43,657 nt of DNA from Escherichia coli (GTDB lineage: Bacteria > Pseudomonadota > Gammaproteobacteria > Enterobacterales > Enterobacteriaceae), in assembly GCF_003334315.1 (NCBI RefSeq), contig NZ_QOWR01000041.1, one strand, 5' to 3'. The translations under genes were made by a program, and so were the position numbers. Below, in pieces: positions 1 through 39,638 of this stretch; position 1 is the stretch's first letter, and each line of letters starts with the position of its first letter. The notes beneath the pieces were generated by a model. That model was not told the origin of the DNA. It ran no database searches and saw only the letters and a list, made by a program, of their open reading frames with translations.

Positions 1-375
1 GACGAACAGTGGGGCTACGTCGGTGCTAAATCACGTCAGCGCTGGCTGTTTTACGCGTATGACAGGATACGGAGGACAGTTGTGGCGCACGTTTTCGGTG
101 AACGCACTATGGCGACGCTGGGGCGTCTTATGAGCCTGCTGTCACCCTTTGACGTGGTGATATGGATGACGGATGGCTGGCCGCTGTATGAATCCCGCCT
201 GAAGGGAAAGCTGCACGTAATCAGCAAGCGATATACGCAGCGAATTGAGCGGCATAACCTGAATCTGAGGCAGCACCTGGCACGGCTGGGACGGAAGTCG
301 CTGTCGTTCTCAAAATCGGTGGAGCTGCATGACAAAGTCATCGGGCATTATCTGAACATAAAACACTATCAATAA
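1..375 (+). CDS. insB: IS1 transposase InsB, C-terminal fragment (window-truncated)
   Basis: Open frame from base 1 to the TAA at 373-375; the protein sequence is recognised as IS1 InsB. Confidence 0.85.
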
Positions 376-390
376 GTTGGAGTCATTACC
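1..390 (+). mobile_element. IS1 insertion sequence, 3' portion (5' part lies outside the window)
   Basis: Bases 1-375 encode the recognisable InsB C-terminus (…[67 protein letters not shown]). The element ends with the IS1 terminal inverted repeat …AAACACTATCAATAAGTTGGAGTCATTACC at 361-390. Confidence 0.9.
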
Positions 391-438
391 GAATTTCAGG
401 TCATGTAACTCCCGGCAAAACCGGGAGGTATGTAATCC

Positions 439-681
439 TTACTCAGTCACTTCCCCTTCCTGGCGGATCTGATTTGCCCAACGTTGGGCAGATTCAGGCA
501 CAGTAAACGCCGGTGAGCGCAGAAATGACTCTCCCATCAGTACAAACGCAACATATTTGCCACGCAGCATCCAGACATCACGAAACGAATCCATCTTTAT
601 CGCATGTTCTGGCGGCGCGGGTTCCGTGCGTGGGACATAGCTAATAATCTGGCGGTTTTGCTGGCGGAGCGGTTTCTTCAT
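439..681 (-). CDS. cedA: Cell division modulator CedA
   Basis: 80-aa product MKKPLRQQNRQIISYVPRTEPAPPEH… recognised as CedA; the ORF track extends 7 codons further upstream. Divergent from katE as in E. coli. Confidence 0.9.
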   Translation of the reverse strand: MKKPLRQQNRQIISYVPRTEPAPPEHAIKMDSFRDVWMLRGKYVAFVLMGESFLRSPAFTVPESAQRWANQIRQEGEVTE

Positions 682-884
682 TACTGGCTTCACTAAACGC
701 ATATTAAAAATCAGAAAAACTGTAGTTTAGCCGATTTAGCCCCTGTACGTCCCGCTTTGCGTGTATTTCATAACACCGTTTCCAGAATAGTCTCCGAAGC
801 GGGATCTGGCTGGTGGTCTATAGTTAGAGAGTTTTTTGACCAAAACAGCGGCCCTTTCAGTAATAAATTAAGGAGACGAGTTCA

Positions 885-3146
885 ATGTCGCAACATAACG
901 AAAAGAACCCACATCAGCACCAGTCACCACTACACGATTCCAGCGAAGCGAAACCGGGGATGGACTCACTGGCACCTGAGGACGGATCTCATCGTCCAGC
1001 GGCTGAACCAACACCGCCAGGTGCACAACCTACCGCCCCTGGGAGCCTGAAAGCCCCTGATACACGTAACGAAAAACTTAATTCTCTGGAAGACGTACGC
1101 AAAGGCAGTGAAAATTATGCGCTGACCACTAATCAGGGCGTGCGCATCGCCGATGATCAAAACTCACTGCGTGCCGGTAACCGTGGTCCAACGCTGCTGG
1201 AAGATTTTATTCTGCGCGAGAAAATCACCCACTTTGACCATGAGCGCATCCCGGAACGTATTGTTCATGCACGCGGATCAGCAGCTCACGGTTATTTCCA
1301 GCCATATAAAAGCTTAAGCGATATCACCAAAGCGGATTTCCTCTCAGATCCGAACAAAATCACCCCAGTATTTGTTAGGTTCTCTACCGTTCAGGGTGGC
1401 GCTGGCTCTGCCGATACCGTGCGTGATATCCGTGGTTTTGCCACCAAGTTCTATACTGAAGAGGGTATTTTTGACCTCGTTGGCAATAACACGCCAATCT
1501 TCTTTATCCAGGATGCGCATAAATTCCCCGATTTTGTTCATGCGGTAAAACCAGAACCGCACTGGGCAATTCCACAAGGGCAAAGTGCCCACGATACTTT
1601 CTGGGATTATGTTTCTCTGCAACCTGAAACTCTGCACAACGTGATGTGGGCGATGTCGGATCGCGGCATCCCCCGCAGTTACCGCACCATGGAAGGCTTC
1701 GGTATTCACACCTTCCGCCTGATTAATGCCGAAGGGAAGGCAACGTTTGTACGTTTCCACTGGAAACCACTGGCAGGTAAAGCCTCACTCGTTTGGGATG
1801 AAGCACAAAAACTCACCGGACGTGACCCGGACTTCCACCGCCGCGAGTTGTGGGAAGCCATTGAAGCAGGCGATTTTCCGGAATACGAACTGGGCTTCCA
1901 GTTGATTCCTGAAGAAGATGAATTCAAGTTCGACTTCGATCTTCTCGATCCAACCAAACTTATCCCGGAAGAACTGGTGCCCGTTCAGCGTGTCGGCAAA
2001 ATGGTGCTCAATCGCAACCCGGATAACTTCTTTGCCGAAAACGAACAAGCAGCATTCCATCCAGGTCATATTGTTCCTGGTCTGGACTTCACCAACGATC
2101 CGCTGTTGCAGGGGCGTTTATTCTCCTATACCGATACACAAATCAGTCGTCTTGGCGGGCCAAATTTCCATGAGATTCCGATTAACCGTCCGACCTGCCC
2201 TTACCATAATTTCCAGCGTGACGGCATGCATCGCATGGGGATCGACACTAACCCGGCTAATTACGAACCGAACTCGATTAACGATAACTGGCCGCGCGAA
2301 ACACCGCCGGGGCCGAAACGCGGCGGTTTTGAATCATACCAGGAGCGCGTGGAAGGCAATAAAGTTCGCGAGCGCAGCCCATCGTTTGGCGAATATTATT
2401 CCCATCCGCGTCTGTTCTGGCTAAGTCAGACGCCATTTGAGCAGCGCCATATTGTCGATGGTTTCAGTTTTGAGTTAAGCAAAGTCGTTCGTCCGTATAT
2501 TCGTGAGCGCGTTGTTGACCAGCTGGCGCATATTGATCTCACTCTGGCCCAGGCGGTGGCGAAAAATCTCGGTATCGAACTGACTGACGACCAGCTGAAT
2601 ATCACCCCACCTCCGGACGTCAACGGTCTGAAAAAGGATCCATCCTTAAGTTTGTACGCCATTCCTGACGGTGATGTGAAAGGTCGCGTGGTAGCGATTT
2701 TACTTAATGATGAAGTGAGATCGGCAGACCTTCTGGCCATTCTCAAGGCGCTGAAGGCCAAAGGCGTTCATGCCAAACTGCTCTACTCCCGAATGGGTGA
2801 AGTGACTGCGGATGACGGTACGGTGTTGCCTATAGCCGCTACCTTTGCCGGTGCACCTTCGCTGACGGTCGATGCGGTCATTGTCCCTTGCGGCAATATC
2901 GCGGATATCGCTGACAACGGCGATGCCAACTACTACCTGATGGAAGCCTACAAACACCTTAAACCGATTGCGCTGGCGGGTGACGCGCGCAAGTTTAAAG
3001 CAACAATCAAGGTCGCTGACCAGGGTGAAGAAGGGATTGTGGAAGCTGACAGCGCTGACGGTAGTTTTATGGATGAACTGCTAACGCTGATGGCAGCACA
3101 CCGCGTGTGGTCACGCATTCCTAAGATTGACAAAATTCCTGCCTGA
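885..3146 (+). CDS. katE: Catalase HPII (large-subunit monofunctional catalase)
   Basis: 753-aa ORF with N-terminus [20 protein letters not shown] and catalase core motifs (RERIPERVVHA-like, GSAAHGYF); length matches KatE. Confidence 0.97.
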
Positions 3147-3149
3147 TGG

Positions 3150-3173
3150 GAGGCGGCGCAATTGCGCCGCCTC
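3150..3173 (+). other. 24-nt perfect palindrome GAGGCGGCGCAATTGCGCCGCCTC, 4 nt after the katE stop (possible terminator or REP-like hairpin)
   Basis: Perfect 10-bp stem with AATT loop read directly from the sequence; no strong T-run follows, so intrinsic-terminator status is uncertain. Confidence 0.4.
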
Positions 3174-3202
3174 AAATGATTTACATAGTGCGCTTTGTTT
3201 AT

Positions 3203-3391
3203 GCCGGATGCGGCGTGAACGCCTTATCCGGCCTACAAAACTGTGCAAATTCAATATATTGCAGGAAACACGTAGGCCTGATAAGCGAAGCGCATCAGGC
3301 AGTTTTGCGTTTGTCAGCAGTCTCAAGCGGCGCAGTTACGCCGCCTTTGTAGGAATTAATCGCCGGATGCAAGGTTCACGCCGCATCTGGC
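3203..3391. repeat. BIME/REP cluster (REP - spacer with tgcaaattcaatatattgcagg - REP, plus a third REP-like unit)
   Basis: GCCGGATGCGGCGTGAACGCCTTATCCGGCCTAC-type REP palindromes at about 3203-3236, 3272-3302 and 3362-3391, typical of enterobacterial intergenic repeats. Confidence 0.8.
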
Positions 3392-3403
3392 AAACATCCT
3401 CAC

Positions 3404-4165
<762 letters not shown>

Positions 4166-10303: not shown

Positions 10304-10348
10304 TAATTTGCACATATTGGATTGTGCGAAAAAGAGTAATTTGTTCAC

Positions 10349-10447
10349 GCCGGATGCGGCGTGAACGCCTTATTCGACCTATAAAACTATGCAAATTCAA
10401 TACATTGCAGGAGTCGAATAGGCCTGACAGGCGTAGCACGTCAGACG
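10349..10447. repeat. REP - spacer - REP unit (RIP/BIME-like) between nadE and cho
   Basis: CGCCGGATGCGGCGTGAACGCCTTATTCGACC … tgcaaattcaatacattgcagg … GGCCTGACAGGCGTAGCACGTCAGACG; near-identical in architecture to the unit at 3203-3302. Confidence 0.75.
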
Positions 10448-10532
10448 GTGTAACCTTTGTCATCGACCCGCCTCTTTTTTAATCGCTTCCCGCCTGTTAC
10501 ACTGGATAGATAACCAGCATTCGGAGTCAACA

Positions 10533-23090: not shown

Positions 23091-24257
23091 ATGCGCCATT
23101 GTGGGTGGTTGCTGGGATTGTTATCGCTGTTTTCTCTGGCAACACATGCCAGTGACTGGCAAGAAATTAAAAATGAGGCCAAAGGGCAAACCGTCTGGTT
23201 TAACGCCTGGGGCGGCGATACCGCAATTAACCGCTATCTCGACTGGGTGAGCGGCGAGATGAAAACCCATTACGCTATAAACCTGAAGATTGTCCGTCTG
23301 GCGGATGCCGCAGACGCGGTGAAGCGCATTCAGACCGAAGCCGCAGCCGGACGTAAAACGGGCGGCTCGGTGGATCTGCTCTGGGTGAACGGCGAAAACT
23401 TCCGCACCTTAAAAGAGGCCAATTTATTACAAACGGGCTGGGCGGAGACTCTGCCCAACTGGCGCTATGTCGACACACAGCTGCCGGTGCGGGAAGATTT
23501 TTCTGTGCCGACACAAGGTGCGGAATCGCCCTGGGGCGGCGCACAACTGACGTTTATCGCCCGCCGCGATGTTACGCCACAGCCACCACAAACGCCGCAA
23601 GCCTTACTGGAGTTTGCTAAAGCCAATCCCGGCACGGTTACCTATCCGCGCCCACCGGACTTTACCGGCACGGCGTTTCTTGAACAGTTGCTGATTATGC
23701 TGACGCCCGATCCCGCCGCATTAAAAGAAGCGCCGGACGATGCGACTTTCGCCCGTGTCACTGCTCCCTTGTGGCAATATCTTGATGTGCTGCATCCGTA
23801 TTTGTGGCGCGAAGGAAAGGATTTCCCGCCTTCACCCGCGCGGATGGATGCTCTGCTGAAAGCCGGCACATTGCGCCTGTCGCTGACCTTTAACCCCGCG
23901 CATGCGCAGCAAAAAATCGCCAGCGGCGATTTGCCTGCAAGCAGTTACAGTTTTGGCTTTCGCGAGGGGATGATTGGCAACGTGCATTTCGTCACCATTC
24001 CTGCCAACGCGAATGCCAGTGCTGCGGCGAAGGTAGTTGCCAATTTCCTGCTCTCACCCGATGCGCAACTGCGTAAAGCAGATCCCGCTGTCTGGGGCGA
24101 TCCTTCTGTTCTCGATCCGCAAAAACTGCCTGACGGGCAGCGCGAATCATTGCAATCAAGAATGCCGCAGGATCTGCCGCCGGTACTGGCTGAACCGCAC
24201 GCAGGTTGGGTAAATGCGCTGGAACAAGAATGGCTACACCGTTACGGTACGCATTAA
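23091..24257 (+). CDS. ynjB: ABC transporter periplasmic substrate-binding protein
   Basis: 388-aa product with signal peptide MRHCGWLLGLLSLFSLATHA; RBS AGGAGA precedes it; the start may be 1 codon upstream (23088). Confidence 0.85.
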   Translation: MRHCGWLLGLLSLFSLATHASDWQEIKNEAKGQTVWFNAWGGDTAINRYLDWVSGEMKTHYAINLKIVRLADAADAVKRIQTEAAAGRKTGGSVDLLWVNGENFRTLKEANLLQTGWAETLPNWRYVDTQLPVREDFSVPTQGAESPWGGAQLTFIARRDVTPQPPQTPQALLEFAKANPGTVTYPRPPDFTGTAFLEQLLIMLTPDPAALKEAPDDATFARVTAPLWQYLDVLHPYLWREGKDFPPSPARMDALLKAGTLRLSLTFNPAHAQQKIASGDLPASSYSFGFREGMIGNVHFVTIPANANASAAAKVVANFLLSPDAQLRKADPAVWGDPSVLDPQKLPDGQRESLQSRMPQDLPPVLAEPHAGWVNALEQEWLHRYGTH

Positions 24258-25765
24258 TCTTTTTGCTGTGGGCGATGGTGGCGGTGATTTATGCACCGCT
24301 GATCCCGGCAGCTCTCACGCTGATATCGCCTGCTTTGTCGTTGACACACTGGCAGGCGTTATTTGCCGATCCACAGTTACCGCAGGCATTACTGGCAACG
24401 CTGGTGTCGACAACCATCGCGGCGGTCGGGGCATTGTTGATTGCCCTGCTGGTGATTGTGGCGCTGTGGCCTGGGCCGAAATGGCAGCGTATGTGCGCCC
24501 GTCTGCCGTGGCTGCTCGCCATTCCCCATGTGGCTTTTGCCACCAGCGCCCTTCTGCTCTTTGCTGACGGAGGGCTGCTTTATGACTATTTCCCGTATTT
24601 CACTCCGCCAATGGACCGATTTGGCATCGGTCTGGGCCTCACCCTTGCAGTGAAAGAAAGCGCATTTCTGCTGTGGATCTTAGCAGCAGTATTGAGCGAA
24701 AAATGGCTGTTGCAGCAGGTCATTGTGCTGGATTCGCTGGGCTACAGCCGCTGGCAATGCCTGAACTGGCTGCTGTTGCCCTCCGTCGCGCCTGCGCTGG
24801 CAATGGCGATGCTGGCGATTGTTGCCTGGTCGCTGTCGGTCGTGGATGTGGCAATTATTCTCGGGCCAGGTAATCCCCCGACGCTGGCGGTAATTAGCTG
24901 GCAGTGGTTAACCCAGGGCGACATTGACCAACAAACAAAAGGCGCGCTTGCCAGCCTGCTGTTGATGCTGTTACTCGCCGCCTACGTTTTGCTGAGCTAT
25001 CTGCTATGGCGCAGCTGGCGGCGCACTATTCCCCGCGTAGATGGCGTTCGCAAGCCTGCCACGCCTTTATTGCCGGGCAATACGCTGGCGATTTTTTTAC
25101 CCTTAACCGGTGTGCTGTGTGTGGTTCTGCTGGCGATCCTCGCGGATCAGTCGACGATCAATAGTGAAGCGCTCATCAACAGCCTGACAATGGGGCTGGT
25201 GGCGACATTCATCGCTTTGCTCCTGTTACTGCTGTGGCTGGAATGGGGGCCACAGCGTCGCCAGTTGTGGCTATGGTTGCCCATTTTATTACCTGCTCTG
25301 CCACTGGTGGCGGGCCAGTACACGCTGGCGCTATGGCTGAAACTGGATGGAAGCTGGACGGCGGTGGTCTGGGGGCATCTGCTGTGGGTGATGCCGTGGA
25401 TGCTGTTTATCCTGCAACCCGCCTGGCAGCGCATTGATTCACGGTTAATTTTGATTGCGCAAACACTGGGCTGGTCGCGGGCCAAAATCTTCTTTTACGT
25501 GAAATGCCCACTCATGTTGCGCCCTGTGCTGATTGCCTTCGCGGTGGGATTTGCAGTCGGTATTGCGCAGTATATGCCAACGCTGTGGCTGGGCGCGGGG
25601 CGTTTTCCGACGCTCACCACTGAGGCGGTGGCATTAAGCAGCGGCGGCAGCAACGGTATTCTCGCCGCCCAGGCTTTATGGCAACTGCTATTACCGCTTA
25701 TTATTTTTGCCCTGACCGCGTTAGTCGCAAAATGGGTAGGTTATGTCAGACAAGGACTCCGCTAA
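24230..25765 (+). CDS. ynjC: ABC transporter permease (two-domain)
   Basis: 511-aa multi-pass membrane ORF; overlaps the ynjB 3' end by 28 nt; the start is chosen by length and may be off by a few codons. Confidence 0.85.
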   Translation: MATPLRYALIFLLWAMVAVIYAPLIPAALTLISPALSLTHWQALFADPQLPQALLATLVSTTIAAVGALLIALLVIVALWPGPKWQRMCARLPWLLAIPHVAFATSALLLFADGGLLYDYFPYFTPPMDRFGIGLGLTLAVKESAFLLWILAAVLSEKWLLQQVIVLDSLGYSRWQCLNWLLLPSVAPALAMAMLAIVAWSLSVVDVAIILGPGNPPTLAVISWQWLTQGDIDQQTKGALASLLLMLLLAAYVLLSYLLWRSWRRTIPRVDGVRKPATPLLPGNTLAIFLPLTGVLCVVLLAILADQSTINSEALINSLTMGLVATFIALLLLLLWLEWGPQRRQLWLWLPILLPALPLVAGQYTLALWLKLDGSWTAVVWGHLLWVMPWMLFILQPAWQRIDSRLILIAQTLGWSRAKIFFYVKCPLMLRPVLIAFAVGFAVGIAQYMPTLWLGAGRFPTLTTEAVALSSGGSNGILAAQALWQLLLPLIIFALTALVAKWVGYVRQGLR

Positions 25766-26418
25766 TGCTCTGCGTGAAAAATGTTTCGCTACGTTTACCA
25801 GAAAGCCGCTTGCTGACAAACGTTAACTTTACGGTGGATAAAGGTGACATTGTCACGTTAATGGGGCCGTCTGGCTGTGGAAAATCCACTCTGTTTTCAT
25901 GGATGATTGGTGCACTGGCCGAACAGTTTTCTTGTACAGGTGAGCTATGGCTCAATGAGCAACGGATTGACATCCTACCCACCGCACAGCGTCAGATTGG
26001 CATTCTTTTTCAGGATGCACTGTTATTTGACCAGTTCAGTGTCGGGCAAAATTTACTGCTGGCGCTACCGGCGACACTTAAAGGGAATGCCCGACGTAAT
26101 GCCGTGAATGATGCACTTGAGCGTTCAGGCCTTGAGGGAGCTTTCCATCAGGATCCTGCCACTTTGTCTGGCGGTCAGCGAGCGCGCGTTGCTCTACTAC
26201 GCGCCCTTCTCGCCCAACCAAAAGCGTTACTCCTGGATGAGCCATTCAGCCGTCTTGATGTGGCTCTGCGCGATAATTTTCGCCAGTGGGTGTTCAGCGA
26301 AGTTCGCGCCCTGGCGATCCCCGTCGTTCAGGTAACGCACGATCTCCAGGATGTTCCTGCTGATAGTTCTGTTCTGGATATGGCGCAGTGGTCAGAAAAT
26401 TACAACAAACTGCGATAA
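25765..26418 (+). CDS. ynjD: ABC transporter ATP-binding protein
   Basis: 217-aa product MLCVKNVSLRLPESRLLTNVNFTVDKGDIVTLMGPSGCGKSTL… with Walker A, LSGGQ signature and Walker B; its start overlaps the ynjC stop (TAATG). Confidence 0.9.
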   Translation: MLCVKNVSLRLPESRLLTNVNFTVDKGDIVTLMGPSGCGKSTLFSWMIGALAEQFSCTGELWLNEQRIDILPTAQRQIGILFQDALLFDQFSVGQNLLLALPATLKGNARRNAVNDALERSGLEGAFHQDPATLSGGQRARVALLRALLAQPKALLLDEPFSRLDVALRDNFRQWVFSEVRALAIPVVQVTHDLQDVPADSSVLDMAQWSENYNKLR

Positions 26419-26484
26419 CGCAAAGTTTTTCTCAATGCGTCAGTTCAGAATGGCGCACTCAAAACTACAATGTCGGGATTTTCG

Positions 26485-27792
26485 ATGAAACGTGTTTCTC
26501 AAATGACCGCGCTGGCAATGGCTTTAGGGCTGGCTTGCGCTTCTTCGTGGGCCGCTGAACTGGCGAAGCCTCTTACACTTGACCAGCTTCAACAACAAAA
26601 TGGCAAAGCGATAGATACTCGCCCCAGCGCGTTTTATAACGGCTGGCCACAAACCTTAAATGGCCCTTCTGGTCATGAACCTGCCGCCTTAAACCTCTCT
26701 GCCAGCTGGCTTGACAAAATGAGCACCGAACAGCTCAACGCGTGGATCAAGCAACATAACCTGAAAACCGATGCTCCGGTGGCGCTGTACGGTAATGACA
26801 AAGATGTCGACGCCGTCAAAACGCGACTGCAAAAAGCAGGTTTAACGCATATCTCCATCCTGAGTGACGCGCTAAGCGAACCTTCCCGTCTGCAAAAACT
26901 GCCGCATTTTGAGCAGCTGGTTTATCCGCAATGGCTGCACGACCTGCAACAAGGTAAAGAGGTTACGGCGAAACCTGCCGGTGACTGGAAAGTCATTGAA
27001 GCGGCCTGGGGCGCTCCTAAGCTTTACCTTATCAGCCATATTCCCGGCGCTGACTACATCGATACCAACGAAGTGGAAAGTGAACCGCTGTGGAACAAAG
27101 TTTCTGATGAACAACTAAAAGCGATGCTGGCAAAACACGGCATTCGCCATGACACCACGGTCATTCTGTATGGGCGTGACGTATACGCTGCAGCGCGTGT
27201 GGCGCAGATTATGCTTTATGCTGGCGTGAAAGATGTGCGCCTGCTGGATGGCGACTGGCAAACCTGGTCCGACGCGGGACTGCCTGTTGAGCGCGGAACG
27301 CCACCGAAAGTGAAAGCGGAACCGGATTTCGGCGTGAAGATCCCGGCACAACCGCAGTTGATGCTCGATATGGAACAGGCCCGTGGACTGCTGCATCGCC
27401 AGGATGCATCGCTGGTGAGCATTCGTTCGTGGCCAGAATTTATCGGTACGACCAGCGGTTACAGCTATATTAAACCAAAAGGTGAAATAGCCGGAGCACG
27501 TTGGGGACACGCTGGTAGCGACTCGACGCATATGGAAGATTTTCATAACCCGGATGGCACCATGCGCAGCGCCGATGATATTACCGCTATGTGGAAAGCG
27601 TGGAATATCAAACCAGAGCAGCAAGTTTCATTCTACTGCGGCACCGGCTGGCGCGCGTCCGAAACCTTTATGTACGCACGCGCCATGGGTTGGAAGAATG
27701 TTTCCGTGTATGACGGCGGCTGGTACGAATGGAGCAGCGATCCAAAAAATCCGGTAGCAACCGGTGAACGCGGCCCGGACAGTAGCAAATAA
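26485..27792 (+). CDS. ynjE: Periplasmic multi-domain rhodanese (thiosulfate sulfurtransferase)
   Basis: 435-aa product MKRVSQMTALAMALGLACASSWAAELAK… with signal peptide and C-terminal rhodanese active-site CGTGWR. Confidence 0.9.
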   Translation: MKRVSQMTALAMALGLACASSWAAELAKPLTLDQLQQQNGKAIDTRPSAFYNGWPQTLNGPSGHEPAALNLSASWLDKMSTEQLNAWIKQHNLKTDAPVALYGNDKDVDAVKTRLQKAGLTHISILSDALSEPSRLQKLPHFEQLVYPQWLHDLQQGKEVTAKPAGDWKVIEAAWGAPKLYLISHIPGADYIDTNEVESEPLWNKVSDEQLKAMLAKHGIRHDTTVILYGRDVYAAARVAQIMLYAGVKDVRLLDGDWQTWSDAGLPVERGTPPKVKAEPDFGVKIPAQPQLMLDMEQARGLLHRQDASLVSIRSWPEFIGTTSGYSYIKPKGEIAGARWGHAGSDSTHMEDFHNPDGTMRSADDITAMWKAWNIKPEQQVSFYCGTGWRASETFMYARAMGWKNVSVYDGGWYEWSSDPKNPVATGERGPDSSK

Positions 27793-27800
27793 CATTGCAA

Positions 27801-28427
27801 TTACTGACGCTGGAGCGACTTCAGCGTCAGATACCCACTCCACACCCGCGTAAAGGTCGTCATCCAGCACAACGCACCGAAGATCCACGCAAACCACGCA
27901 AACCATGCAGGGAATAAACATCCCAGCACAAACAGTAAGATCGTTTCTGTGCCTTCGGTTAATCCCCCCAGATAGTAAAACGACTTATGTGCATAACCGG
28001 GGTTATCAATCTGATGTTTTGCTGCCAGTGCAGCAAAGGCGAGAAAACTGCTGCCCGTGCCGATAAACGCAAACAACAACCAGCCGCCTGCCAGCGCATT
28101 TTGCTCCGGTGCAGCAAGAATAAAGCCAAACGGCACCAGCGCGTAAAAGAGAAAATCGAGAGAAATATCAAGAAAGCCGCCCGCGTCGGTAAGCTCTCTG
28201 CGCCGCGCCAGCGCACCGTCCAGACCATCAAGCAGCCTGTTCAACAAAATGACGACTAGCGCCGCCAGATACCAGCCCAGCGCCAGAAACGGCAGAGCCA
28301 GTACGCCGATGGCAAATCCCACTAATGTTAAACCATCTGGCGTAATGCCCGGTTTATCAAGAACCCGCACGCATTGATGCAACAACGGTTTAATCCGGGG
28401 ATGAAGATGGCGGTCTAGCACAGGCAC
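27801..28427 (-). CDS. ynjF: CDP-alcohol phosphatidyltransferase-family membrane protein
   Basis: 208-aa ORF with D-G-x2-A-R…G-x3-D-x3-D-like motif (LLDGLDGALARRRELTDAGGFLDISLD); the true start may be the GTG 2 codons in. Confidence 0.85.
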   Translation of the reverse strand: MPVLDRHLHPRIKPLLHQCVRVLDKPGITPDGLTLVGFAIGVLALPFLALGWYLAALVVILLNRLLDGLDGALARRRELTDAGGFLDISLDFLFYALVPFGFILAAPEQNALAGGWLLFAFIGTGSSFLAFAALAAKHQIDNPGYAHKSFYYLGGLTEGTETILLFVLGCLFPAWFAWFAWIFGALCWMTTFTRVWSGYLTLKSLQRQ

Positions 28428-28507
28428 TCCTTAAATATAAAGCCTTTCTGATTGAGCAACAGTGCGGATATTATGGCATTTTTCGCTTATCTGCCCGTGT
28501 GTAATTT

Positions 28508-28915
28508 ATGAAAATGATTGAAGTTGTTGCCGCCATCATTGAACGTGATGGCAAAATTTTACTCGCGCAACGCCCCGCCCAGAGCGATCAGGCGGGATTA
28601 TGGGAGTTTGCCGGTGGTAAAGTCGAGCCGGATGAAAGTCAGCGGCAGGCGCTGGTGCGTGAGTTACGCGAAGAACTGGGCATCGAAGCAACTGTGGGTG
28701 AGTATGTTGCCAGCCATCAGCGAGAAGTTTCGGGGCGGATTATCCATCTTCATGCCTGGCACGTACCCGACTTCCACGGGACGTTACAGGCACATGAACA
28801 TCAGGCGCTGGTCTGGTGCTCACCTGAAGAGGCGCTGCAATATCCGCTGGCCCCTGCTGACATTCCACTATTAGAGGCGTTTATGGCTTTACGCGCCGCC
28901 AGACCAGCGGATTAG
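28508..28915 (+). CDS. nudG: Nudix hydrolase (CTP / 5-methyl-dCTP pyrophosphohydrolase)
   Basis: 135-aa ORF with the Nudix box GGKVEPDESQRQALVRELREELGIE. Confidence 0.92.
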   Translation: MKMIEVVAAIIERDGKILLAQRPAQSDQAGLWEFAGGKVEPDESQRQALVRELREELGIEATVGEYVASHQREVSGRIIHLHAWHVPDFHGTLQAHEHQALVWCSPEEALQYPLAPADIPLLEAFMALRAARPAD

Positions 28916-29153
28916 TGCTAAGGGTTTTGTCATCACGCTGGCATTGCAGCAGTATTCCCTCGGCTTTAATTACCGCTCCTTCAGAATAATTTTTATCCTG
29001 ATAAACGCAGCACTGAGTACAGGGCTGCGCTGACTGCCCGCCTGAACTGAACACTTCTGGCGGTACGTTTACCTCCACGTCCGGACGATAATGCGGGTTA
29101 GCCAGTGCAATTAATGGAAATGCTAATACTACGGCGAACAATGCTCGACTCAC
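28881..29153 (-). CDS. ynjH: Small secreted Cys-containing protein (DUF1496)
   Basis: 90-aa ORF MSRALFAVVLAFPLIALANPHYRPD… with a signal peptide; its 3' end overlaps the nudG 3' end by 35 nt. Confidence 0.8.
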   Translation of the reverse strand: MSRALFAVVLAFPLIALANPHYRPDVEVNVPPEVFSSGGQSAQPCTQCCVYQDKNYSEGAVIKAEGILLQCQRDDKTLSTNPLVWRRVKP

Positions 29154-29286
29154 AGGGAGCTCCTTAACGTTATTGTCTCTGCTACTGATAACGGTAGCCG
29201 GGCGGCAAAACTTTAGCGTCTGAGTTATCGCATTTGGTTATGAGATTACTCTCGTTATTAATTTGCTTTCCTGGGTCATTTTTTTC

Positions 29287-29317
29287 TTGCTTACCGTCAC
29301 ATTCTTGATGGTATAGT
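29287..29317 (+). promoter_or_regulatory. Candidate sigma-70 promoter for gdhA (TTGCTT - 19 bp - TATAGT)
   Basis: Hexamers read from the sequence about 70-100 nt upstream of the gdhA ATG; the spacer is slightly long, so the call is tentative. Confidence 0.35.
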
Positions 29318-29388
29318 CGAAAACTGCAAAAGCACATGACATAAACAACATAAGCACAATCGTATTAATATATAAGGGTTTTATATCT

Positions 29389-30732
29389 ATGGATCAGACA
29401 TATTCTCTGGAGTCATTCCTCAACCATGTCCAAAAGCGCGACCCGAATCAAACCGAGTTCGCGCAAGCCGTTCGTGAAGTAATGACCACACTCTGGCCTT
29501 TTCTTGAACAAAATCCAAAATATCGCCAGATGTCATTACTGGAGCGTCTGGTTGAACCGGAGCGCGTGATCCAGTTTCGCGTGGTATGGGTTGATGATCG
29601 CAACCAGGTACAGGTCAACCGTGCATGGCGTGTGCAGTTCAGCTCTGCCATCGGCCCGTACAAAGGCGGTATGCGCTTCCATCCGTCAGTTAACCTTTCC
29701 ATTCTCAAATTCCTCGGCTTTGAACAAACCTTCAAAAATGCCCTGACTACTCTGCCGATGGGCGGTGGTAAAGGCGGCAGCGATTTCGATCCGAAAGGAA
29801 AAAGCGAAGGTGAAGTGATGCGTTTTTGCCAGGCGCTGATGACTGAACTGTATCGCCACCTGGGCGCGGATACCGACGTTCCGGCAGGTGATATCGGGGT
29901 TGGTGGTCGTGAAGTCGGCTTTATGGCGGGGATGATGAAAAAGCTCTCCAACAATACCGCCTGCGTCTTCACCGGTAAGGGCCTTTCATTTGGCGGCAGT
30001 CTTATTCGCCCGGAAGCTACCGGCTACGGTCTGGTTTATTTCACAGAAGCAATGCTAAAACGCCACGGTATGGGTTTTGAAGGGATGCGAGTTTCCGTTT
30101 CTGGCTCCGGCAACGTCGCCCAGTACGCTATCGAAAAAGCGATGGAATTTGGTGCTCGTGTGATCACTGCGTCAGACTCCAGCGGCACTGTAGTTGATGA
30201 AAGCGGATTCACGAAAGAGAAACTGGCACGTCTTATCGAAATCAAAGCCAGCCGCGATGGTCGAGTGGCAGATTACGCCAAAGAATTTGGTCTGGTCTAT
30301 CTCGAAGGCCAACAGCCGTGGTCTGTACCGGTTGATATCGCCCTGCCTTGCGCCACCCAGAACGAACTGGATGTTGACGCCGCGCATCAGCTTATCGCCA
30401 ATGGCGTTAAAGCCGTCGCCGAAGGGGCAAATATGCCGACCACCATCGAAGCGACTGAACTGTTCCAGCAGGCAGGCGTACTGTTTGCACCGGGTAAAGC
30501 GGCTAATGCTGGCGGTGTAGCAACGTCAGGCCTTGAAATGGCGCAAAACGCTGCGCGCCTGGGCTGGAAAGCCGAGAAAGTTGACGCACGTTTGCATCAC
30601 ATCATGCTGGATATCCACCATGCCTGTGTTGAGCATGGTGGTGAAGGTGAGCAAACCAACTACGTGCAGGGCGCGAACATTGCCGGTTTTGTGAAGGTTG
30701 CCGATGCGATGCTGGCGCAGGGTGTGATTTAA
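29389..30732 (+). CDS. gdhA: NADP-specific glutamate dehydrogenase
   Basis: 447-aa ORF MDQTYSLESFLNHVQKRDPNQTEFAQAVREV… with the GDH active-site region (GGGKGGSDFDPKGKS). Confidence 0.96.
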   Translation: MDQTYSLESFLNHVQKRDPNQTEFAQAVREVMTTLWPFLEQNPKYRQMSLLERLVEPERVIQFRVVWVDDRNQVQVNRAWRVQFSSAIGPYKGGMRFHPSVNLSILKFLGFEQTFKNALTTLPMGGGKGGSDFDPKGKSEGEVMRFCQALMTELYRHLGADTDVPAGDIGVGGREVGFMAGMMKKLSNNTACVFTGKGLSFGGSLIRPEATGYGLVYFTEAMLKRHGMGFEGMRVSVSGSGNVAQYAIEKAMEFGARVITASDSSGTVVDESGFTKEKLARLIEIKASRDGRVADYAKEFGLVYLEGQQPWSVPVDIALPCATQNELDVDAAHQLIANGVKAVAEGANMPTTIEATELFQQAGVLFAPGKAANAGGVATSGLEMAQNAARLGWKAEKVDARLHHIMLDIHHACVEHGGEGEQTNYVQGANIAGFVKVADAMLAQGVI

Positions 30733-30740
30733 GTTGTAAA

Positions 30741-30835
30741 TGCCTGATGGCGCTACGCTTATCAGGCCTACAAATGGGCACAATTCATTGCAGTTACGCT
30801 CTAATGTAGGCCGGGCAAGCGCAGCGCCCCCGGCA
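30741..30835. repeat. BIME/REP pair between gdhA and ynjI
   Basis: TGCCTGATGGCGCTACGCTTATCAGGCCTACA … CTAATGTAGGCCGGGCAAGCGCAGCGCCCCCGGCA; canonical REP palindromes in inverted orientation. Confidence 0.8.
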
Positions 30836-30848
30836 AAATTTCAGGCGT

Positions 30849-31889
30849 TTATGAGTATTTAACGGATGATGCTCCCCACGGAACATTTCTTATGGGCCAA
30901 CGGCATTTCTTACTGTAGTGCTCCCAAAACTGCTTGTCGTAACGATAACACGCTTCAAGTTCAGCATCCGTTAACTTTCTGCGATAGCAGCAGATATGCC
31001 AGTAAAGAAATCCCATTTGACTATTTTTTTGATAATCTTCTTCGCTTTCGAACAACTCGTGCGCCTTTCGAGAAGCAAGCATTATATAATGCCAGGCCAG
31101 TTCTTCTTCAATTGTCCCGTTTTGAAAAGCTGTGCTTGATATCGAGATCATCCATGATAATTCCGCCGCCCATATTAGCTTCGCCGAGGATTTACCGGAG
31201 CTATGATTAGCGCAATCAGAGATATAGTCTGAGGGAAAAACAGCAAATTTATTCAACAAGGCGATAACCTGCTCTGGGGCTTCCTCCATGTTTGCTTTAA
31301 AGGTATTGGCTCCATGGTCGCCAGAAAGAAAATGCTCCATTAAGGCACAATAACTTTCGCTATCTTCGATACCCCATTGATCCTCTAAAGACTCGCGTCT
31401 TTTACTTATGATATCGATCGAGTCAAAAGGAAGCACATGATATTGGAAGGTATCTTTGCCAGGTTCAGGCTTTCGCGGCCAGAACTCCAGCGTTTCAGAC
31501 CATTGCTTATGATAGAATCGATAAGGTGCGATCAATTGTAGCGCCTGTAACTTCTCGATACTGAGCGGCTCAATACCTTTAGCCTGATAATAATGCAGTT
31601 GTTCTTTTTTTGCTTTAAAACCGGCCCGAACAATAAGCCCCATCATAATTAATAGATAAAGAAAAGAGCATCCCGCGGTAATCAGGCCTCTTTCATTCAA
31701 ACCGTTGGATGTTATCGCTGCGAACACAAACATTACAGCGACAACACATGTTAAATAAACCCCCCACTTACAAAGCAGCATGGCCTTATTTTCTTTAATC
31801 ATCCGTTCAAAATTACTATTAAATATTTCCCAGCCATTAAAAGAATACTTCTCGCTCCCAGGATGGTTTTGTAATAAAACTTTTTTCAT
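30849..31889 (-). CDS. ynjI: Inner-membrane protein YnjI (DUF1266)
   Basis: 346-aa product starting MKKVLLQNHPGSEKYSFNGWEIF…; the ORF track extends 41 codons upstream. Confidence 0.85.
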   Translation of the reverse strand: MKKVLLQNHPGSEKYSFNGWEIFNSNFERMIKENKAMLLCKWGVYLTCVVAVMFVFAAITSNGLNERGLITAGCSFLYLLIMMGLIVRAGFKAKKEQLHYYQAKGIEPLSIEKLQALQLIAPYRFYHKQWSETLEFWPRKPEPGKDTFQYHVLPFDSIDIISKRRESLEDQWGIEDSESYCALMEHFLSGDHGANTFKANMEEAPEQVIALLNKFAVFPSDYISDCANHSSGKSSAKLIWAAELSWMISISSTAFQNGTIEEELAWHYIMLASRKAHELFESEEDYQKNSQMGFLYWHICCYRRKLTDAELEACYRYDKQFWEHYSKKCRWPIRNVPWGASSVKYS

Positions 31890-32016
31890 CACATTCCCTG
31901 TTATTACATACTTTAGAGGCGATAATTTTATCCATGCAAAAAAAATATCCAACGAATTTTCTTGATCCGCTGGATATTTCAGAATATGACTCGAATAGCA
32001 CGAAAGATTCACTCGC

Positions 32017-33978
32017 TTACGCTATCGCCCCGCTTCCGACTTCATCTGCTGGCGGACTTTTTTTCGCACTACGTTTACGCGGTGCAGCCTTTTTCTTATC
32101 AGCACTGCCACCACTGCCCGGAGCCACAATGCCGCGAAACTGCCGCACCGGCGTACGTTTGGCTTGATCAATAAGCTGATATAGCGTCCCCACCAGCGGC
32201 TGCATAAAGTCCTGATAGCGACACTGCTTTTCGCTGATTTGCGTCAGCACCGATTCCCAGTGCGCGGTCATGTCCGGTCGCGTCGCCATCTCCGGCAGCG
32301 AATGGAATAGCGCTTTTCCGGCGTCGGTGGAGTGGATATAGCGCCCTTTTTTGGTCAGGAAACCACGCTTGAACAACAGTTCAATAATCCCGGCACGCGT
32401 TGCCTCTGTCCCCAGACCATCGGTCGCACGGAGGATCTTTTTCAGATCTTTATCCTGCACAAAGCGCGCGATCCCGGTCATCGCCGAAAGCAGTGTTGCA
32501 TCGGTAAAATGGCGCGGCGGCTGGGTTTGCCGCTCTACCACTTCACCTTTTTCACACAGCAACTCATCGCCTTTCGCCACCACAGGCAGTGGCGTGCCGT
32601 CGTTTTCTTCATCGCGCTCTTTGCTGCCTAACAGCGTGCGCCAGCCTGCTTCAGCAAGAAAACGCGCTTTAGCGACAAATTTGCCTTTGGCAATGTCCAG
32701 TTCGATAACACACTTGCGGAACACCGCATCCGGGCAGAATTGCATCAGATACTGACGGGCAATCAGGTTATAGACCTTCGCTTCGTTCTCCGTCAGGTTG
32801 ATCGCAGAACTCCGTGCGGTCGGAATGATGGCGTGGTGCGCATCGACCTTTTTGTCATCCCAACAGCGGTTGCGTATATCTGGATCTACCACTGGCTGCG
32901 GCAACAGATCCGGTGCATGAACACTGATGGCATTCATCACCGCGTGGCGTCCGGCAAAATGTTCTTCTGGCAAATAGCGACAATCAGAACGCGGATAAGT
33001 GATTAGCTTGTGCGTTTCGTACAGTTTCTGGCAGATATCAAGCACGTTCTGCGCACTCAGACCAAAACGTTTTGCCGCTTCAATCTGCAACGCTGAAAGC
33101 GAAAAAGGCAGCGGCGCGGATTCTGATTCCCGTTTATCGTTATAGCTGGTGACAATAGCCGGTTGACCACTAATGCGGTTAACCACATGCTCCGCCAGTG
33201 GACGATGTAACAAGCGCCCTTCTTCATCCTGGTACGGTTCACACGCTTCGCTCGGTTGCCAGATAGCGGTAAACCGCTCATCGGCAGGTGTCACGATATG
33301 TGCTTTGACTTCAAAGAAGTCTTTCGCCACGAAGTTTTCAATCTCTTCATCGCGGCGCACCACCAGCCCAAGCACGGGCGTCTGCACGCGTCCCACGGAA
33401 AGTACGCCCTGATAACCGGCATTGCGACCGAGAATGGTATACGCACGGGTCATATTGATGCCGTACAGCCAGTCGGCACGCGCTCGCGCCAGCGCAGAAA
33501 CGCACAGCGGTACAAACTCACTGTTGGAACGAAGACGGTCGATCGCCCGCTCAACCGCCTGCGGGTTCAGGTCGTTTATCAAGCAACGCTGTACCTGCTG
33601 GCGCTTTTCCGGTGCCAGTTGCAGATAGTCCAGCACTTCATCCACCAGCAATTGCCCTTCACGATCCGGGTCCCCGGCGTGAACGATTTCGCTGGCTTCA
33701 TGCAGGAACCGTTTGATGACGTTAAGTTGTTTGGTCACGGAGGGTCGGGGCTGTAATTGCCACTTTTCCGGGACAATCGGCAAATCCGCAAGATTCCAGC
33801 GCGCATAGCGGCTGTCGTAGGCGTCTGGCTGCGCCTGCTCAAGCAGGTGACCGATACACCAGGTCACCACCTGACCATTACCGCACTCGATAAAGCCATC
33901 GCCTTTCCGGTGCGGTTTGGGCAGGACATCAGCAATGGCGCGCGCCAGACTCGGTTTTTCGGCAATAAACAACCGCAT
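32017..33978 (-). CDS. topB: DNA topoisomerase III
   Basis: 653-aa product [47 protein letters not shown]… with a Toprim N-terminus; the ORF track has 19 extra N-terminal codons. Confidence 0.96.
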
Positions 33979-33982
33979 TGAA

Positions 33983-35026
33983 TTAACGAATCTCAACCAT
34001 GGCACGACCGCCGCGCGCTGGCACCAGTTCGCCAATTGCCGTCAGTTCAATGCCAAACTCGGCGGCTGTAGCTTTGACCTCATTTTCTGCTTCCGGCATG
34101 ACCGCCAGCAGCAAACCGCCAGAAGTTTGCGGATCACACAGCAGATCGCGCACTTCACGCGGCATTTCACCCATCAGATGACCGTAGCTGGCAAAGTTAC
34201 GTTCAGTGCCGCCAGGTACTGCGCCCAACTTAATGTACTCTTCAACACCGGGGAGTTTCGGGATCGCTTCATAGTCGACGCGTGCCTGCACACCAGCCCC
34301 CTGACACATTTCGCTCAAGTGGCCCAGCAGACCAAAGCCCGTAACGTCGGTCATCGCTTTTACGCCTTCGATGTTGGCAAAGGACGCGCCTGCGATGTTC
34401 ATCCGGCACATCACTTCCGTCGCCAGTCCCTGATGTTCTGGTTTCAACAGTGATTTTTTCTCAGCCGTGGTAAGAACGCCGATCCCCAGCGGTTTCGTCA
34501 GGAACAGTTTGCATCCGGCTTGTGCGGTACTGTTTTTCTTCACCCGCTCGGTCGGTACGATCCCCGTTACCGCCAGACCAAAAATCGGCTCCGGCGCATC
34601 GATGGAGTGACCGCCAGCCAGCGCAATACCCGCCTGACGACATGCATAGCGTCCACCTTCGGTCACTTCGCGGGCAATTTCTGGGGAAAGTTTGTTAATC
34701 GGCCAGCCGAGGATCGCAATCGCCATAATCGGTTTGCCCCCCATCGCGAAGATATCGCTGATGGCGTTAGTCGCCGCAATGCGGCCAAAATCGAAAGGAT
34801 TATCAACGATCGGCATAAAGAAGTCGGTGGTACTGATAACGCTGGTGCCATTGCCCAGATCGTACACCGCCGCATCGTCGCGGGTTTCATTACCCACAAG
34901 CAAATTCGGATCAACAAACTTCGCCTGCTCACTATGCAGGATGGTTTCCAACACTTTTGGGGAAATTTTACAGCCGCAACCAGCTCCGTGGCTGTATTGG
35001 GTCAAACGAATCGAGTTCTCGCTCAT
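33983..35026 (-). CDS. selD: Selenide, water dikinase (selenophosphate synthetase)
   Basis: 347-aa product [30 protein letters not shown]… recognised as SelD; immediately upstream of topB. Confidence 0.95.
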
Positions 35027-35142
35027 GGACATCTCCTGTCAATGCAATCCGGGTATGGTAACCCTCATTCCGTGAAGTGATAAGTGAGAGTGTCTGAATT
35101 CCTGCGCCTTTGCTCACAATCCAGACAGTTTCGCGACAATTA

Positions 35143-35694
35143 TCAGAAATAAGTTACAAACGGCGTCGGGTCCGGGACGTTAATCGACGTAGATGCTTTC
35201 AGCTGCGGCGTACCGAGGTAGAGAAAACCGACAATTTTATCCTGCTCACGGCAACCGAATGCTTCACGCACTACCGGACTTTCAGTTAATGCGCCACTGC
35301 GCCAGATGCCGCCAAACCCCTGGGCAACTGCTGCCATTTGCATCGCCATGACCGCGCATCCGGCAGACATTTCCTGTTCCCAGCGCGGGACTTTATGATT
35401 CTCTTCGCATTTCGCCACCACCGTGATGATGAGCGGTGCGCGGAACGGCGCATTACGGGCTTTGTCGATAGCTTTGTCATCACTACCGGCAGCAATCGCC
35501 CCCTGTTCCAGTACGGCGCTGAAACGCTCGCGCCCTTCCCCTTCAATCACAAAAAAATGCCACGGTTGCATGGACTTATGGTCCGGCGCACGCATACCCG
35601 CACGCAGGATGTTTTGCAGTTGTTCACCCGTTGGCGCGGGTTCAGCCAAGCGGGAGGCGCTACGGCGATTGATCAATAGTTCGAGTGCATCCAT
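35143..35694 (-). CDS. ydjA: Nitroreductase-family protein
   Basis: 183-aa [53 protein letters not shown]… with a nitroreductase fold signature. Confidence 0.9.
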
Positions 35695-35854
35695 TTGATT
35701 AACTCCTGTCGTGATATTTATTCACAAAATTAACACGAGAGTGGATTTTGTTACAGCACAGTCCGCAATTCCTGCTGACAAGTACCGGTTGGGTCATTAC
35801 GATAACCACATCTATTGCGCCTGTGACAGGTGTGACCTTAAGTTGGGAGAATAC

Positions 35855-37711
35855 ATGCGAACCCTTTGGCGATTTATTGCCGGATTTTTTAAATGGACGT
35901 GGCGTCTGCTGAATTTCGTCCGTGAAATGGTACTTAACCTGTTCTTTATTTTCCTCGTACTGGTTGGTGTGGGGATTTGGATGCAGGTCAGTGGTGGTGA
36001 TTCGAAAGAAACGGCCAGTCGTGGCGCACTGCTGCTGGACATTTCTGGTGTGATCGTCGATAAACCCGACAGTTCTCAGCGGTTTAGTAAATTAAGCCGC
36101 CAGCTGCTTGGTGCCAGTTCCGATCGTCTGCAGGAAAACTCACTGTTTGATATCGTCAACACTATTCGCCAGGCGAAGGACGACCGCAATATCACCGGTA
36201 TTGTGATGGATCTGAAAAACTTCGCAGGCGGCGACCAACCGTCTATGCAGTACATCGGCAAAGCTCTGAAAGAGTTTCGTGACAGCGGGAAACCGGTTTA
36301 TGCCGTTGGCGAGAACTACAGCCAGGGGCAATATTATCTCGCCAGTTTCGCCAATAAAATTTGGCTGTTTCCGCAAGGCGTGGTTGATCTGCACGGCTTT
36401 GCCACCAACGGTCTGTACTACAAATCGTTGCTGGATAAGCTGAAAGTTTCCACCCATGTGTTCCGCGTGGGTACGTATAAATCTGCCGTTGAACCGTTTA
36501 TTCGTGATGATATGTCACCGGCAGCCCGCGAAGCTGACAGCCGCTGGATTGGTGAGCTGTGGCAAAACTATCTGAATACTGTTGCCGCTAACCGGCAGAT
36601 CCCTGCTGAGCAGGTATTCCCTGGCGCGCAAGGGTTGCTTGAGGGTTTAACCAAAACCGGTGGCGATACCGCGAAATATGCACTGGAAAACAAGCTGGTC
36701 GATGCACTGGCATCGAGTGCGGAAATCGAAAAAGCACTGACCAAAGAATTCGGCTGGAGTAAGACTGATAAAAATTATCGCGCCATCAGTTATTACGATT
36801 ACGCATTGAAAACGCCGGCAGATACCGGTGACAGCATCGGTGTCGTCTTTGCTAATGGCGCAATTATGGATGGCGAGGAAACTCAGGGGAATGTTGGCGG
36901 TGATACCACTGCGGCACAAATCCGCGACGCTCGCCTTGACCCGAAAGTGAAAGCGATTGTCCTGCGTGTTAATAGCCCAGGCGGCAGCGTTACCGCGTCT
37001 GAAGTGATTCGCGCTGAACTGGCAGCAGCCCGGGCAGCGGGTAAGCCTGTGGTTGTATCGATGGGCGGCATGGCGGCATCTGGTGGTTACTGGATTTCCA
37101 CGCCAGCTAATTACATTGTGGCTAACCCCAGCACCCTGACCGGTTCTATCGGTATCTTCGGCGTGATCACCACCGTAGAAAATAGTCTGGATTCGATTGG
37201 TGTTCATACCGATGGTGTCTCAACTTCACCGCTGGCAGATGTTTCTATCACCAGGGCACTGCCGCCGGAAGCACAGCAGATGATGCAGTTAAGCATTGAG
37301 AATGGCTATAAACGCTTTATCACGCTGGTTGCTGATGCGCGTCATTCGACGCCGGAGCAGATTGATAAAATCGCCCAGGGCCACGTCTGGACCGGTCAGG
37401 ATGCAAAAGCTAACGGGCTGGTCGATAGCCTCGGGGATTTCGATGATGCAGTTGCCAAAGCAGCAGAGCTGGCAAAAGTGAAACAGTGGCATCTGGAATA
37501 CTACGTTGATGAACCGATCTTCTTCGACAAAGTGATGGACAACATGTCTGGTTCTGTCCGGGCAATGTTGCCAGATGCGTTCCAGGCCATGTTACCTGCA
37601 CCGCTGGCCTCGGTAGCCTCTACTGTTAAAAGTGAAAGCGACAAGCTGGCCGCGTTTAACGACCCACAAAACCGTTATGCGTTTTGCCTGACCTGCGCCA
37701 ACGTGCGTTAA
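35855..37711 (+). CDS. sppA: Signal peptide peptidase A (protease IV)
   Basis: 618-aa product [33 protein letters not shown]…; the ORF track has 48 extra upstream codons; tandem S49 peptidase domains. Confidence 0.94.
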
Positions 37712-37877
37712 GTCTTGTACTGAGTGGCCGACAGATCGTCGGCCACATTATTTTTTACGTCGACGAATCCTCTTCCCGCTGTCTCGCCCCATATTTCCTT
37801 ATCCGCATAGTATCAGGTGCGCTCCTCCTGCCTCACGTATATACTTTTGCTCTTTCGATATCATTCATATCAATATC

Positions 37878-38894
37878 ATGCAAAAGAAATCAATTTACGT
37901 CGCCTACACGGGCGGGACCATCGGGATGCAGCGTTCCGAGCAGGGTTATATTCCGGTGTCAGGTCATCTACAACGCCAACTGGCGCTGATGCCGGAATTC
38001 CATCGCCCGGAGATGCCAGATTTCACCATTCATGAATATACGCCGTTGATGGATTCTTCTGATATGACTCCAGAAGACTGGCAGCATATTGCTGAAGATA
38101 TTAAAGCGCACTATGACGACTATGATGGTTTTGTCATTCTGCACGGCACCGATACGATGGCATATACCGCCTCTGCGCTGTCGTTCATGCTCGAGAATCT
38201 CGGTAAACCAGTCATTGTGACAGGGTCACAAATCCCGCTAGCTGAGTTACGCTCTGACGGACAAATTAATCTGCTGAATGCGTTGTACGTTGCGGCGAAT
38301 TATCCGATCAACGAAGTAACGCTCTTTTTCAATAACCGATTGTATCGCGGCAACCGCACTACCAAAGCCCATGCCGATGGTTTTGATGCGTTTGCCTCTC
38401 CAAACCTTCCTCCGTTACTGGAAGCAGGTATCCATATTCGTCGTTTAAATACGCCACCCGCCCCGCACGGTGAAGGGGAATTAATCGTTCATCCAATCAC
38501 CCCACAACCAATTGGCGTAGTGACGATTTATCCAGGGATTTCTGCTGACGTCGTGCGCAATTTTCTGCGCCAACCGGTGAAAGCATTGATTTTGCGCTCC
38601 TATGGCGTGGGTAATGCGCCACAAAACAAAGCCTTCCTGCAGGAATTACATGAAGCCAGCGATCGCGGTATTGTGGTGGTCAACCTGACACAATGTATGT
38701 CCGGTAAAGTGAACATGGGTGGTTATGCCACCGGTAACGCCCTCGCCCATGCCGGCGTTATTGGCGGTGCAGATATGACTGTAGAAGCCACGCTAACCAA
38801 ACTGCATTACCTGCTGAGCCAGGAACTGGATACTGAAACCATTCGCAAGGCCATGAGCCAAAACCTGCGCGGCGAACTGACGCCGGATGATTAA
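37878..38894 (+). CDS. ansA: Cytoplasmic L-asparaginase I
   Basis: 338-aa ORF MQKKSIYVAYTGGTIGMQRSEQGY… with the asparaginase threonine motif TGGTIGM. Confidence 0.95.
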   Translation: MQKKSIYVAYTGGTIGMQRSEQGYIPVSGHLQRQLALMPEFHRPEMPDFTIHEYTPLMDSSDMTPEDWQHIAEDIKAHYDDYDGFVILHGTDTMAYTASALSFMLENLGKPVIVTGSQIPLAELRSDGQINLLNALYVAANYPINEVTLFFNNRLYRGNRTTKAHADGFDAFASPNLPPLLEAGIHIRRLNTPPAPHGEGELIVHPITPQPIGVVTIYPGISADVVRNFLRQPVKALILRSYGVGNAPQNKAFLQELHEASDRGIVVVNLTQCMSGKVNMGGYATGNALAHAGVIGGADMTVEATLTKLHYLLSQELDTETIRKAMSQNLRGELTPDD

Positions 38895-38904
38895 GGAGAC
38901 TGCA

Positions 38905-39546: not shown

Positions 39547-39638
39547 TTTTACGCTGGCCTACAATTCTGTACTGGCATTGTAGGCCAAATAAAACACGTC
39601 AGTGGCACATCTGGCAATTGATGCCATCAACGAAAGAT

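Follow-up and report, generated by a model that had tools for sequence, protein, structure and literature searches.

The IS1 copy at the start of the Escherichia coli sequence studied here probably represents a recent insertion, in an IS1-rich, phylogroup-A-like lineage, of a 768-bp element into the AT-rich spacer that separates cedA from ydjO and is bound by H-NS, and it probably left the 3' end of cedA in place. The sequence, hereafter referred to as the window, comprises 43,657 nucleotides of contig NZ_QOWR01000041.1 (assembly GCF_003334315.1), and its first and last features are both incomplete IS1 copies (Table 1). The insertion beside cedA is an ordinary one of a well-known kind, and its junction is already present in public genomes.

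Table 1 Features located in the window, with the basis of each assignment
Feature	Position	Strand	Basis
IS1, right-hand 390 bp (IS1 positions 379-768)	1..390	+	Cut by window start; IRR, NF033558 and alignment to the IS1 of 2018-10-1CC
IS1 target GAATTTCA(G), presumed cedA-side copy of the target-site duplication	391..399	.	Recurrent IS1 target; junctions of AH62 and 2018-10-1CC
Native cedA 3' untranslated flank, 48 bp, 48% GC	391..438	-	Identical to REL606 (locus L001, 4001-4048) and cM2a
Equivalent of the K-12 "Primary" cedA RNA 3' terminus	399..407, dominant ~403	-	PMC10687069 coordinates mapped onto the window
cedA 3' hairpin CUCCCGGU-UUU-GCCGGGAG	409..427	-	Fold of -14.4 kcal/mol, z = -4.0; 8 pairs
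cedA (cell division activator CedA), intact, 87-aa ORF	439..702	-	ORF list; NF007510; RefSeq annotation in relatives
katE (catalase HPII), divergent neighbour of cedA	885..3146	+	ORF list; annotations in relatives
Second IS1, left-hand 204 bp, in ydjH	43454..43657	+	Same orientation as the first; starts GGTGATGATGCCAACTTACTGATT; cut by window end

Results

The IS1 copy and its native surroundings

The 27-nt right terminal repeat of IS1, GGTAATGACTCCAACTTATTGATAGTG, has a single match, on the minus strand at 364-390, with no mismatches and none expected by chance, and this agrees with the sequence-only reading of the same DNA, which had the left IS1 copy ending at 390. The translation of positions 1-372 (plus strand) matches the NCBIfam IS1 transposase equivalog NF033558 with 125 bits against a cut-off of 100, over profile positions 101-199 of 199. 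Frame 1 carries the C-terminal part of insB', which ends with a stop codon at 373-375. The terminal inverted repeat stands at the very end of the element, and the InsAB' transposase is represented in the window by its C-terminal part only. Alignment gave the same orientation for this copy as for the annotated 768-bp IS1 of strain 2018-10-1CC (NZ_AP021894.1), and all of the comparator IS1 copies at the cedA locus are 768 bp long. With the transposase frame on the plus strand running toward cedA on the minus strand, any transcription out of IS1 would be antisense to cedA, as had been proposed.

In its terminal repeats, insAB' layout, and presumed 768-bp size, the element is like IS1A downstream of nhaAR in K-12 and like IS1 copies in AT-rich intergenic DNA of E. 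coli. It likewise shares with known IS1 insertions a convergent arrangement with the host gene just upstream, as well as the occurrence of 8-9-bp duplications and adjacent deletions at the locus. Nothing essential separates it from ordinary IS1 insertions, except that the window copy is missing in the closest sequenced relatives and is known here from its right part. IS1 is described as generating 8-9-bp duplications and as carrying a weak promoter, with transcription of the element being helped by entry from upstream host DNA (PMC12428005).

The gene next to the element is a genuine cedA, since it matches the CedA equivalog NF007510 over its full length (residues 1-87; 187 bits, cut-off 78) and occupies the conserved place beside katE; of 5,426 complete E. 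coli genomes, 5,424 have it annotated as cedA by RefSeq. The position of katE shows that the locus is otherwise native. The native E. coli order is tcyP(+), ydjO(-), cedA(-), katE(+), with ydjO on the same strand as cedA and a 288-bp spacer between the two, so that ydjO had been correctly named as the downstream neighbour. The cedA stop codon at 439-441 and the 48 bp of native flank had also been read correctly, these 48 bp being identical in REL606 and cM2a.

The 3' end of cedA

The retained flank contains a perfect, GC-rich stem just 3' of cedA, which, according to the predicted fold, forms in the IS1 context as well. In this respect, it has the stem-loop of an intrinsic terminator, but the U-tract is missing: the hairpin is followed directly by UUACAUGACC. 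The earlier statement that the flank holds no hairpin with a U-run is therefore literally true, and the consensus scan agrees with it, but the hairpin itself had been missed. The consensus scan detected no terminator-like site in positions 1-1000 of the window, nor, in REL606 with its intact 288-bp spacer, any on the cedA strand between ydjO and cedA; an Rfam search of positions 1-1000 returned nothing relevant. Since no canonical terminator is present on the cedA strand of the native spacer, there was none further out for IS1 to displace. The hairpin is invariant in the Escherichia loci compared (L001, L011, and L013) and has no homology in other genera, so its covariation is uninformative beyond this invariance.

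For K-12, a "Primary" cedA 3' terminus is listed in the supplementary data of PMC10687069 (TRS method), with a peak at 1813381-1813389, a dominant position at 1813385, and a 3' UTR of 37 nt. The maximum U-tract at this terminus is 3, and the printed fold contains the hairpin found here at 409-427 (PMC10687069). Up to the IS1 junction, the sequence printed for K-12 does not differ from the window, and the terminus, as mapped in K-12, corresponds to a position (~403) that lies 6-7 nt beyond the hairpin and about 12 nt within the retained flank. The coordinates of PMC10687069, rather than its legend, were used for this mapping. According to the legend of Supplementary Data 3, "Fold seq" covers 40 nt upstream and 10 nt downstream of the terminus, and "U-tract seq" covers 20 nt upstream and 10 nt downstream; the sequences printed for cedA and for several other entries fit about 50 up/1 down and 10 up/20 down, respectively. 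The most unfavourable reading of the legend would place the terminus at ~393, which is still within 391-438, yet 2-3 nt from IS1. Three other 3'-end supplements (PMC7815308, PMC12207403, and PMC6131387) contain no cedA entry.

The suggestion of the sequence-only reading that the native cedA terminator may have been displaced by IS1 was not upheld by these data: both the hairpin and the K-12 3' terminus at ~403 lie within 391-438, i.e., in the reference strain the end of the transcript is contained in the very stretch that the insertion has left untouched. In its organization, this end is similar to Rho-terminated transcripts with hairpin-protected 3' ends (Dar and Sorek 2018, PMC6061677), which possess a stable stem-loop, a 3' end a few nucleotides beyond it, and no U-tract. 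AT-rich, H-NS-bound DNA, typical Rho territory, adjoins the 3' side of cedA, and cedA termination may be Rho-dependent.

Close relatives and the age of the insertion

Stretches of 23.6 kb and 19.5 kb of the window have 100% identity to strains such as cM2a and S171-1, and the parts 391-24000 and 24001-43453 are colinear with, and ~100% identical to, many phylogroup-A-like, IS1-rich strains, most of the close relatives having at least 38 IS1-matching places per genome. In the closest strains, cM2a and S171-1, the spacer and ydjO are intact and no IS1 is present at the site, while cM2a has 0 mismatches to the window over 391-3559. As the nearest relatives are free of IS1 here and have no mismatches in the flank, the insertion is recent and specific to the strain or clone. 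Neither the left nor the right junction was found in one piece, with the IS1 variant and haplotype of the window, among 5,426 complete E. coli genomes.

At the same time, cM2a carries an IS1 inside chbR (locus L005, 8233-9852) that is absent from the window, which points to ongoing IS1 activity in the lineage.

A recurrent IS1 target in the ydjO-cedA spacer

The same nucleotide junction, that is, the IS1 end followed by GAATTTCAGG at 48 bp from the cedA stop codon, is present in 2018-10-1CC. This strain differs from the window in its IS1 variant (25 mismatches in the shared 390 bp), in its flank haplotype (12 mismatches in 391-1673), and in a 687-bp deletion that extends into ydjO beside its IS1. 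Copies in the opposite orientation were searched for with a chimeric query, for which AH62 and AH65 (NZ_CP055259.1 and NZ_CP058302.1) matched in a single piece; in both strains, the opposite-orientation IS1 has the same nucleotide junction, again with the IS1 end followed by GAATTTCAGG, and GAATTTCA(G) is found on both sides of the element as a clean target duplication of 8/9 bp that involves the same nucleotides. The target GAATTTCA(G) has been hit independently in at least two other lineages, which makes three events when the window is counted. Given ~29 distinct junction positions within ~1 kb, ~0.004 such triple coincidences would be expected.

The differences between 2018-10-1CC and the window are unevenly distributed in the compared flank (L002 3562-7121 against 391-3559), with all 12 in 391-1673 and none in 1674-3559. 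This step in the mismatches suggests the boundary of a recombination tract within the 5' part of katE.

In the 11 strains whose spacer IS1 was mapped, the element ends 48, 48, 63, 108, 109, 112, 123, 162, 184, 256, or 266 bp from the cedA stop codon, with clusters at 48 bp (three events, the window included) and at 108-112 bp (three events). Five of the 11, AH62 among them, are simple insertions that carry duplications of 8-9 bp. The other six (L002, L003, L016, L017, L019, and L021) are missing 48-860 bp, each time on the ydjO side, and cedA is intact in all 11.

More broadly, an IS1 near cedA, within ~0.7-0.95 kb, was counted in 36 genomes for the same orientation and in 51 for the opposite one, and these counts are ~5-8 times the uniform expectation. 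The idea of a regional IS1 hot spot near cedA was nevertheless downgraded, since the control region at the ydjH junction has a similar density (19 genomes with IS1 within ~575 bp), and insertion tolerance is enough to account for the counts. The regional excess is thus attributed mainly to insertion tolerance, and only the coincidences at the nucleotide level are assigned to target preference. An IHF site was also considered as the cause of the hot spot and rejected, because the native spacer has no match to WATCAANNNNTTR with one mismatch allowed.

The ydjO island and the cedA locus of other genera

The ydjO-cedA spacer is an H-NS-bound "promoter island" and contains the ydjO promoter ATGACT-16-AATAAT (PMC3946193, PMC3661553). 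The GC content is 34% in ydjO and 29% in the distal spacer, against 48% in the proximal 48 bp and 51.5% in cedA; with 29-34% on one side and 48-51.5% on the other, IS1 is located exactly where the composition changes.

In Citrobacter, Salmonella, Raoultella, Enterobacter, and "Escherichia sp. ESNIH1" (L007-L010 and L012), ydjO is absent, and cedA and tcyP are convergent and 48-101 bp apart. The gap holds a canonical bidirectional terminator (A-run, GC hairpin, T-run) serving the two convergent genes in the first four of these groups, whereas that of ESNIH1 holds a hairpin without the T-run. The terminator of the other genera and the Escherichia hairpin are alike in being GC-rich and placed straight after cedA; however, the Escherichia hairpin is unrelated to them in sequence, has no U-tract, and is followed by the ydjO island or, in the window, by IS1. 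The locus shows ydjO with its AT-rich spacer to be an Escherichia-specific insertion that replaced the canonical bidirectional cedA/tcyP terminator by a hairpin devoid of a U-tract.

One further Escherichia genome (L011, GCA_900449125.1; CedA 89% identical) has a degraded locus resembling that of a Shigella-like genome, with katE and tcyP in fragments, an ORF equivalent to ydjO of only 87 aa, and an unchanged cedA hairpin.

The second IS1 copy and the 43-kb segment

The reverse complement of the IS1 at 43454, used as a query, matched IS1 elements, and ydjH is annotated under the adjoining flank in relatives. The left terminal repeat (IRL) of this copy starts at 43454 and reads GGTGATGATGCC, while all of the comparator copies read GGTGATGCTGCC. 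The two copies (at 390 and 43454) have the same orientation and bracket 43,063 bp, as the two IS1 copies of a composite transposon would. A composite IS1 transposon was nonetheless rejected, because 391-43453 is colinear with, and ~100% identical to, the native cedA-ydjH segment of relatives. The direct IS1 pair is a likely cause of assembly breaks.

Within this segment, two 123-nt intergenic direct repeats with 81% identity were observed at 3194-3316 (after katE) and at 10340-10462 (near chbB/osmE), which may be a REP/BIME-type element.

Discussion

The comparison with related strains is best explained by transposition of IS1 into GAATTTCA(G), 10 bp past the cedA hairpin, at the place where the ~50%-GC tail of cedA meets the ~30%-GC ydjO island. 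The mature cedA mRNA would then retain the usual 3' end at 6-7 nt beyond the hairpin, provided that the end mapped in K-12 is used in this strain as well. This end could be either a weak, non-canonical termination site or the hairpin-protected, exonuclease-trimmed product of Rho-dependent termination further downstream (cf. PMC6061677). The sole change for cedA would be that the polymerases passing the hairpin enter IS1 in antisense instead of the ydjO promoter region; if termination is Rho-dependent and occurs downstream, these polymerases would stop inside IS1, and the termination site itself would have been replaced by IS1 sequence. On the left of the element, ydjO could lie intact beyond a second target copy, or an IS1-associated deletion could have truncated the gene from its 5' end, and the comparator strains make the two outcomes about equally probable. 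With a simple insertion, the left end would read ...CGAAATACAGAATTTCA(G) followed by IS1, with ydjO intact.

Whether the element marks a deletion or rearrangement junction, through which the ydjO promoter and the 5' part of the gene or more were lost by IS1-adjacent deletion or IS1-IS1 recombination, is nearly an even question. Deletions on the ydjO side accompany the element in six of the 11 mapped strains, and 2018-10-1CC, which has exactly the junction of the window, is one of these six; the abundance of IS1 in the lineage (at least 38 matching places per genome) and the second, direct-orientation copy 43 kb away would provide further opportunities for such events. On the other hand, the remaining five strains have simple insertions with 8-9-bp duplications, including AH62 at the identical site, the interior from 391 to 43453 is colinear with relatives, and the window, which starts inside IS1, contains nothing from which the left side could be judged.

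Two effects on cedA itself have to be weighed against the view that the insertion leaves the gene end in place. It is unlikely that IS1 removed or displaced the native cedA terminator, causing cedA transcripts to end abnormally and changing their expression or stability. The shortness of the remaining flank (48 bp) and its lack of a hairpin followed by a U-run are consistent with such a loss, and, as the U-tract reaches 3 at most, the real termination could be Rho-dependent and located downstream, in DNA replaced by IS1. But the mapped K-12 end and the hairpin are within the retained flank, the hairpin is predicted to form next to IS1, and the intact spacer offers no canonical terminator on the cedA strand that could have been lost. 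Even less likely is an action of IS1 on cedA in cis, by an outward or hybrid promoter or by transposase read-through, with the antisense RNA dampening cedA. The convergence of IS1 and cedA would permit it, as would the path between the insB' stop codon and cedA, in which there is no terminator-like site and the plus-strand hairpin lacks a T-run; Prentki and colleagues are, moreover, said to have reported in 1986 that IS1 ends can create hybrid promoters. Against this, the consensus scan revealed no sigma-70-like site on either strand of positions 1-1000, and a candidate outward or hybrid promoter at the IS1 end was rejected for this reason; the IS1 promoter is weak and helped by upstream host transcription (PMC12428005), and in the native arrangement ydjO, which lies upstream of the element, is read in the direction leading away from it. 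Any antisense transcription started at the weak promoter of IS1 would probably be negligible.

A further proposal concerns the site itself. It is possible, although we would rate it somewhat below an even chance, that GAATTTCA(G), which is separated from the cedA hairpin by 10 bp and marks the GC/AT boundary of the ydjO island, is a nucleotide-precise natural IS1 hot spot which, together with the one-sided deletions (six of 11, erasing the ydjO promoter and 5' end and never cedA), reflects a structural targeting cue and a selection or mechanistic polarity that favours the loss of ydjO.

The insertion alone matters little, being strain-specific and disrupting neither cedA nor the position of the mapped 3' end of its RNA. 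The direct IS1 pair is a substrate for IS1-IS1 recombination that could delete or amplify the cedA-ydjH segment, and it bears on assembly and on strain stability. The locus as a whole offers a clear-cut case from nature in which IS1 has gone back to one target, to the exact nucleotide, in different lineages.
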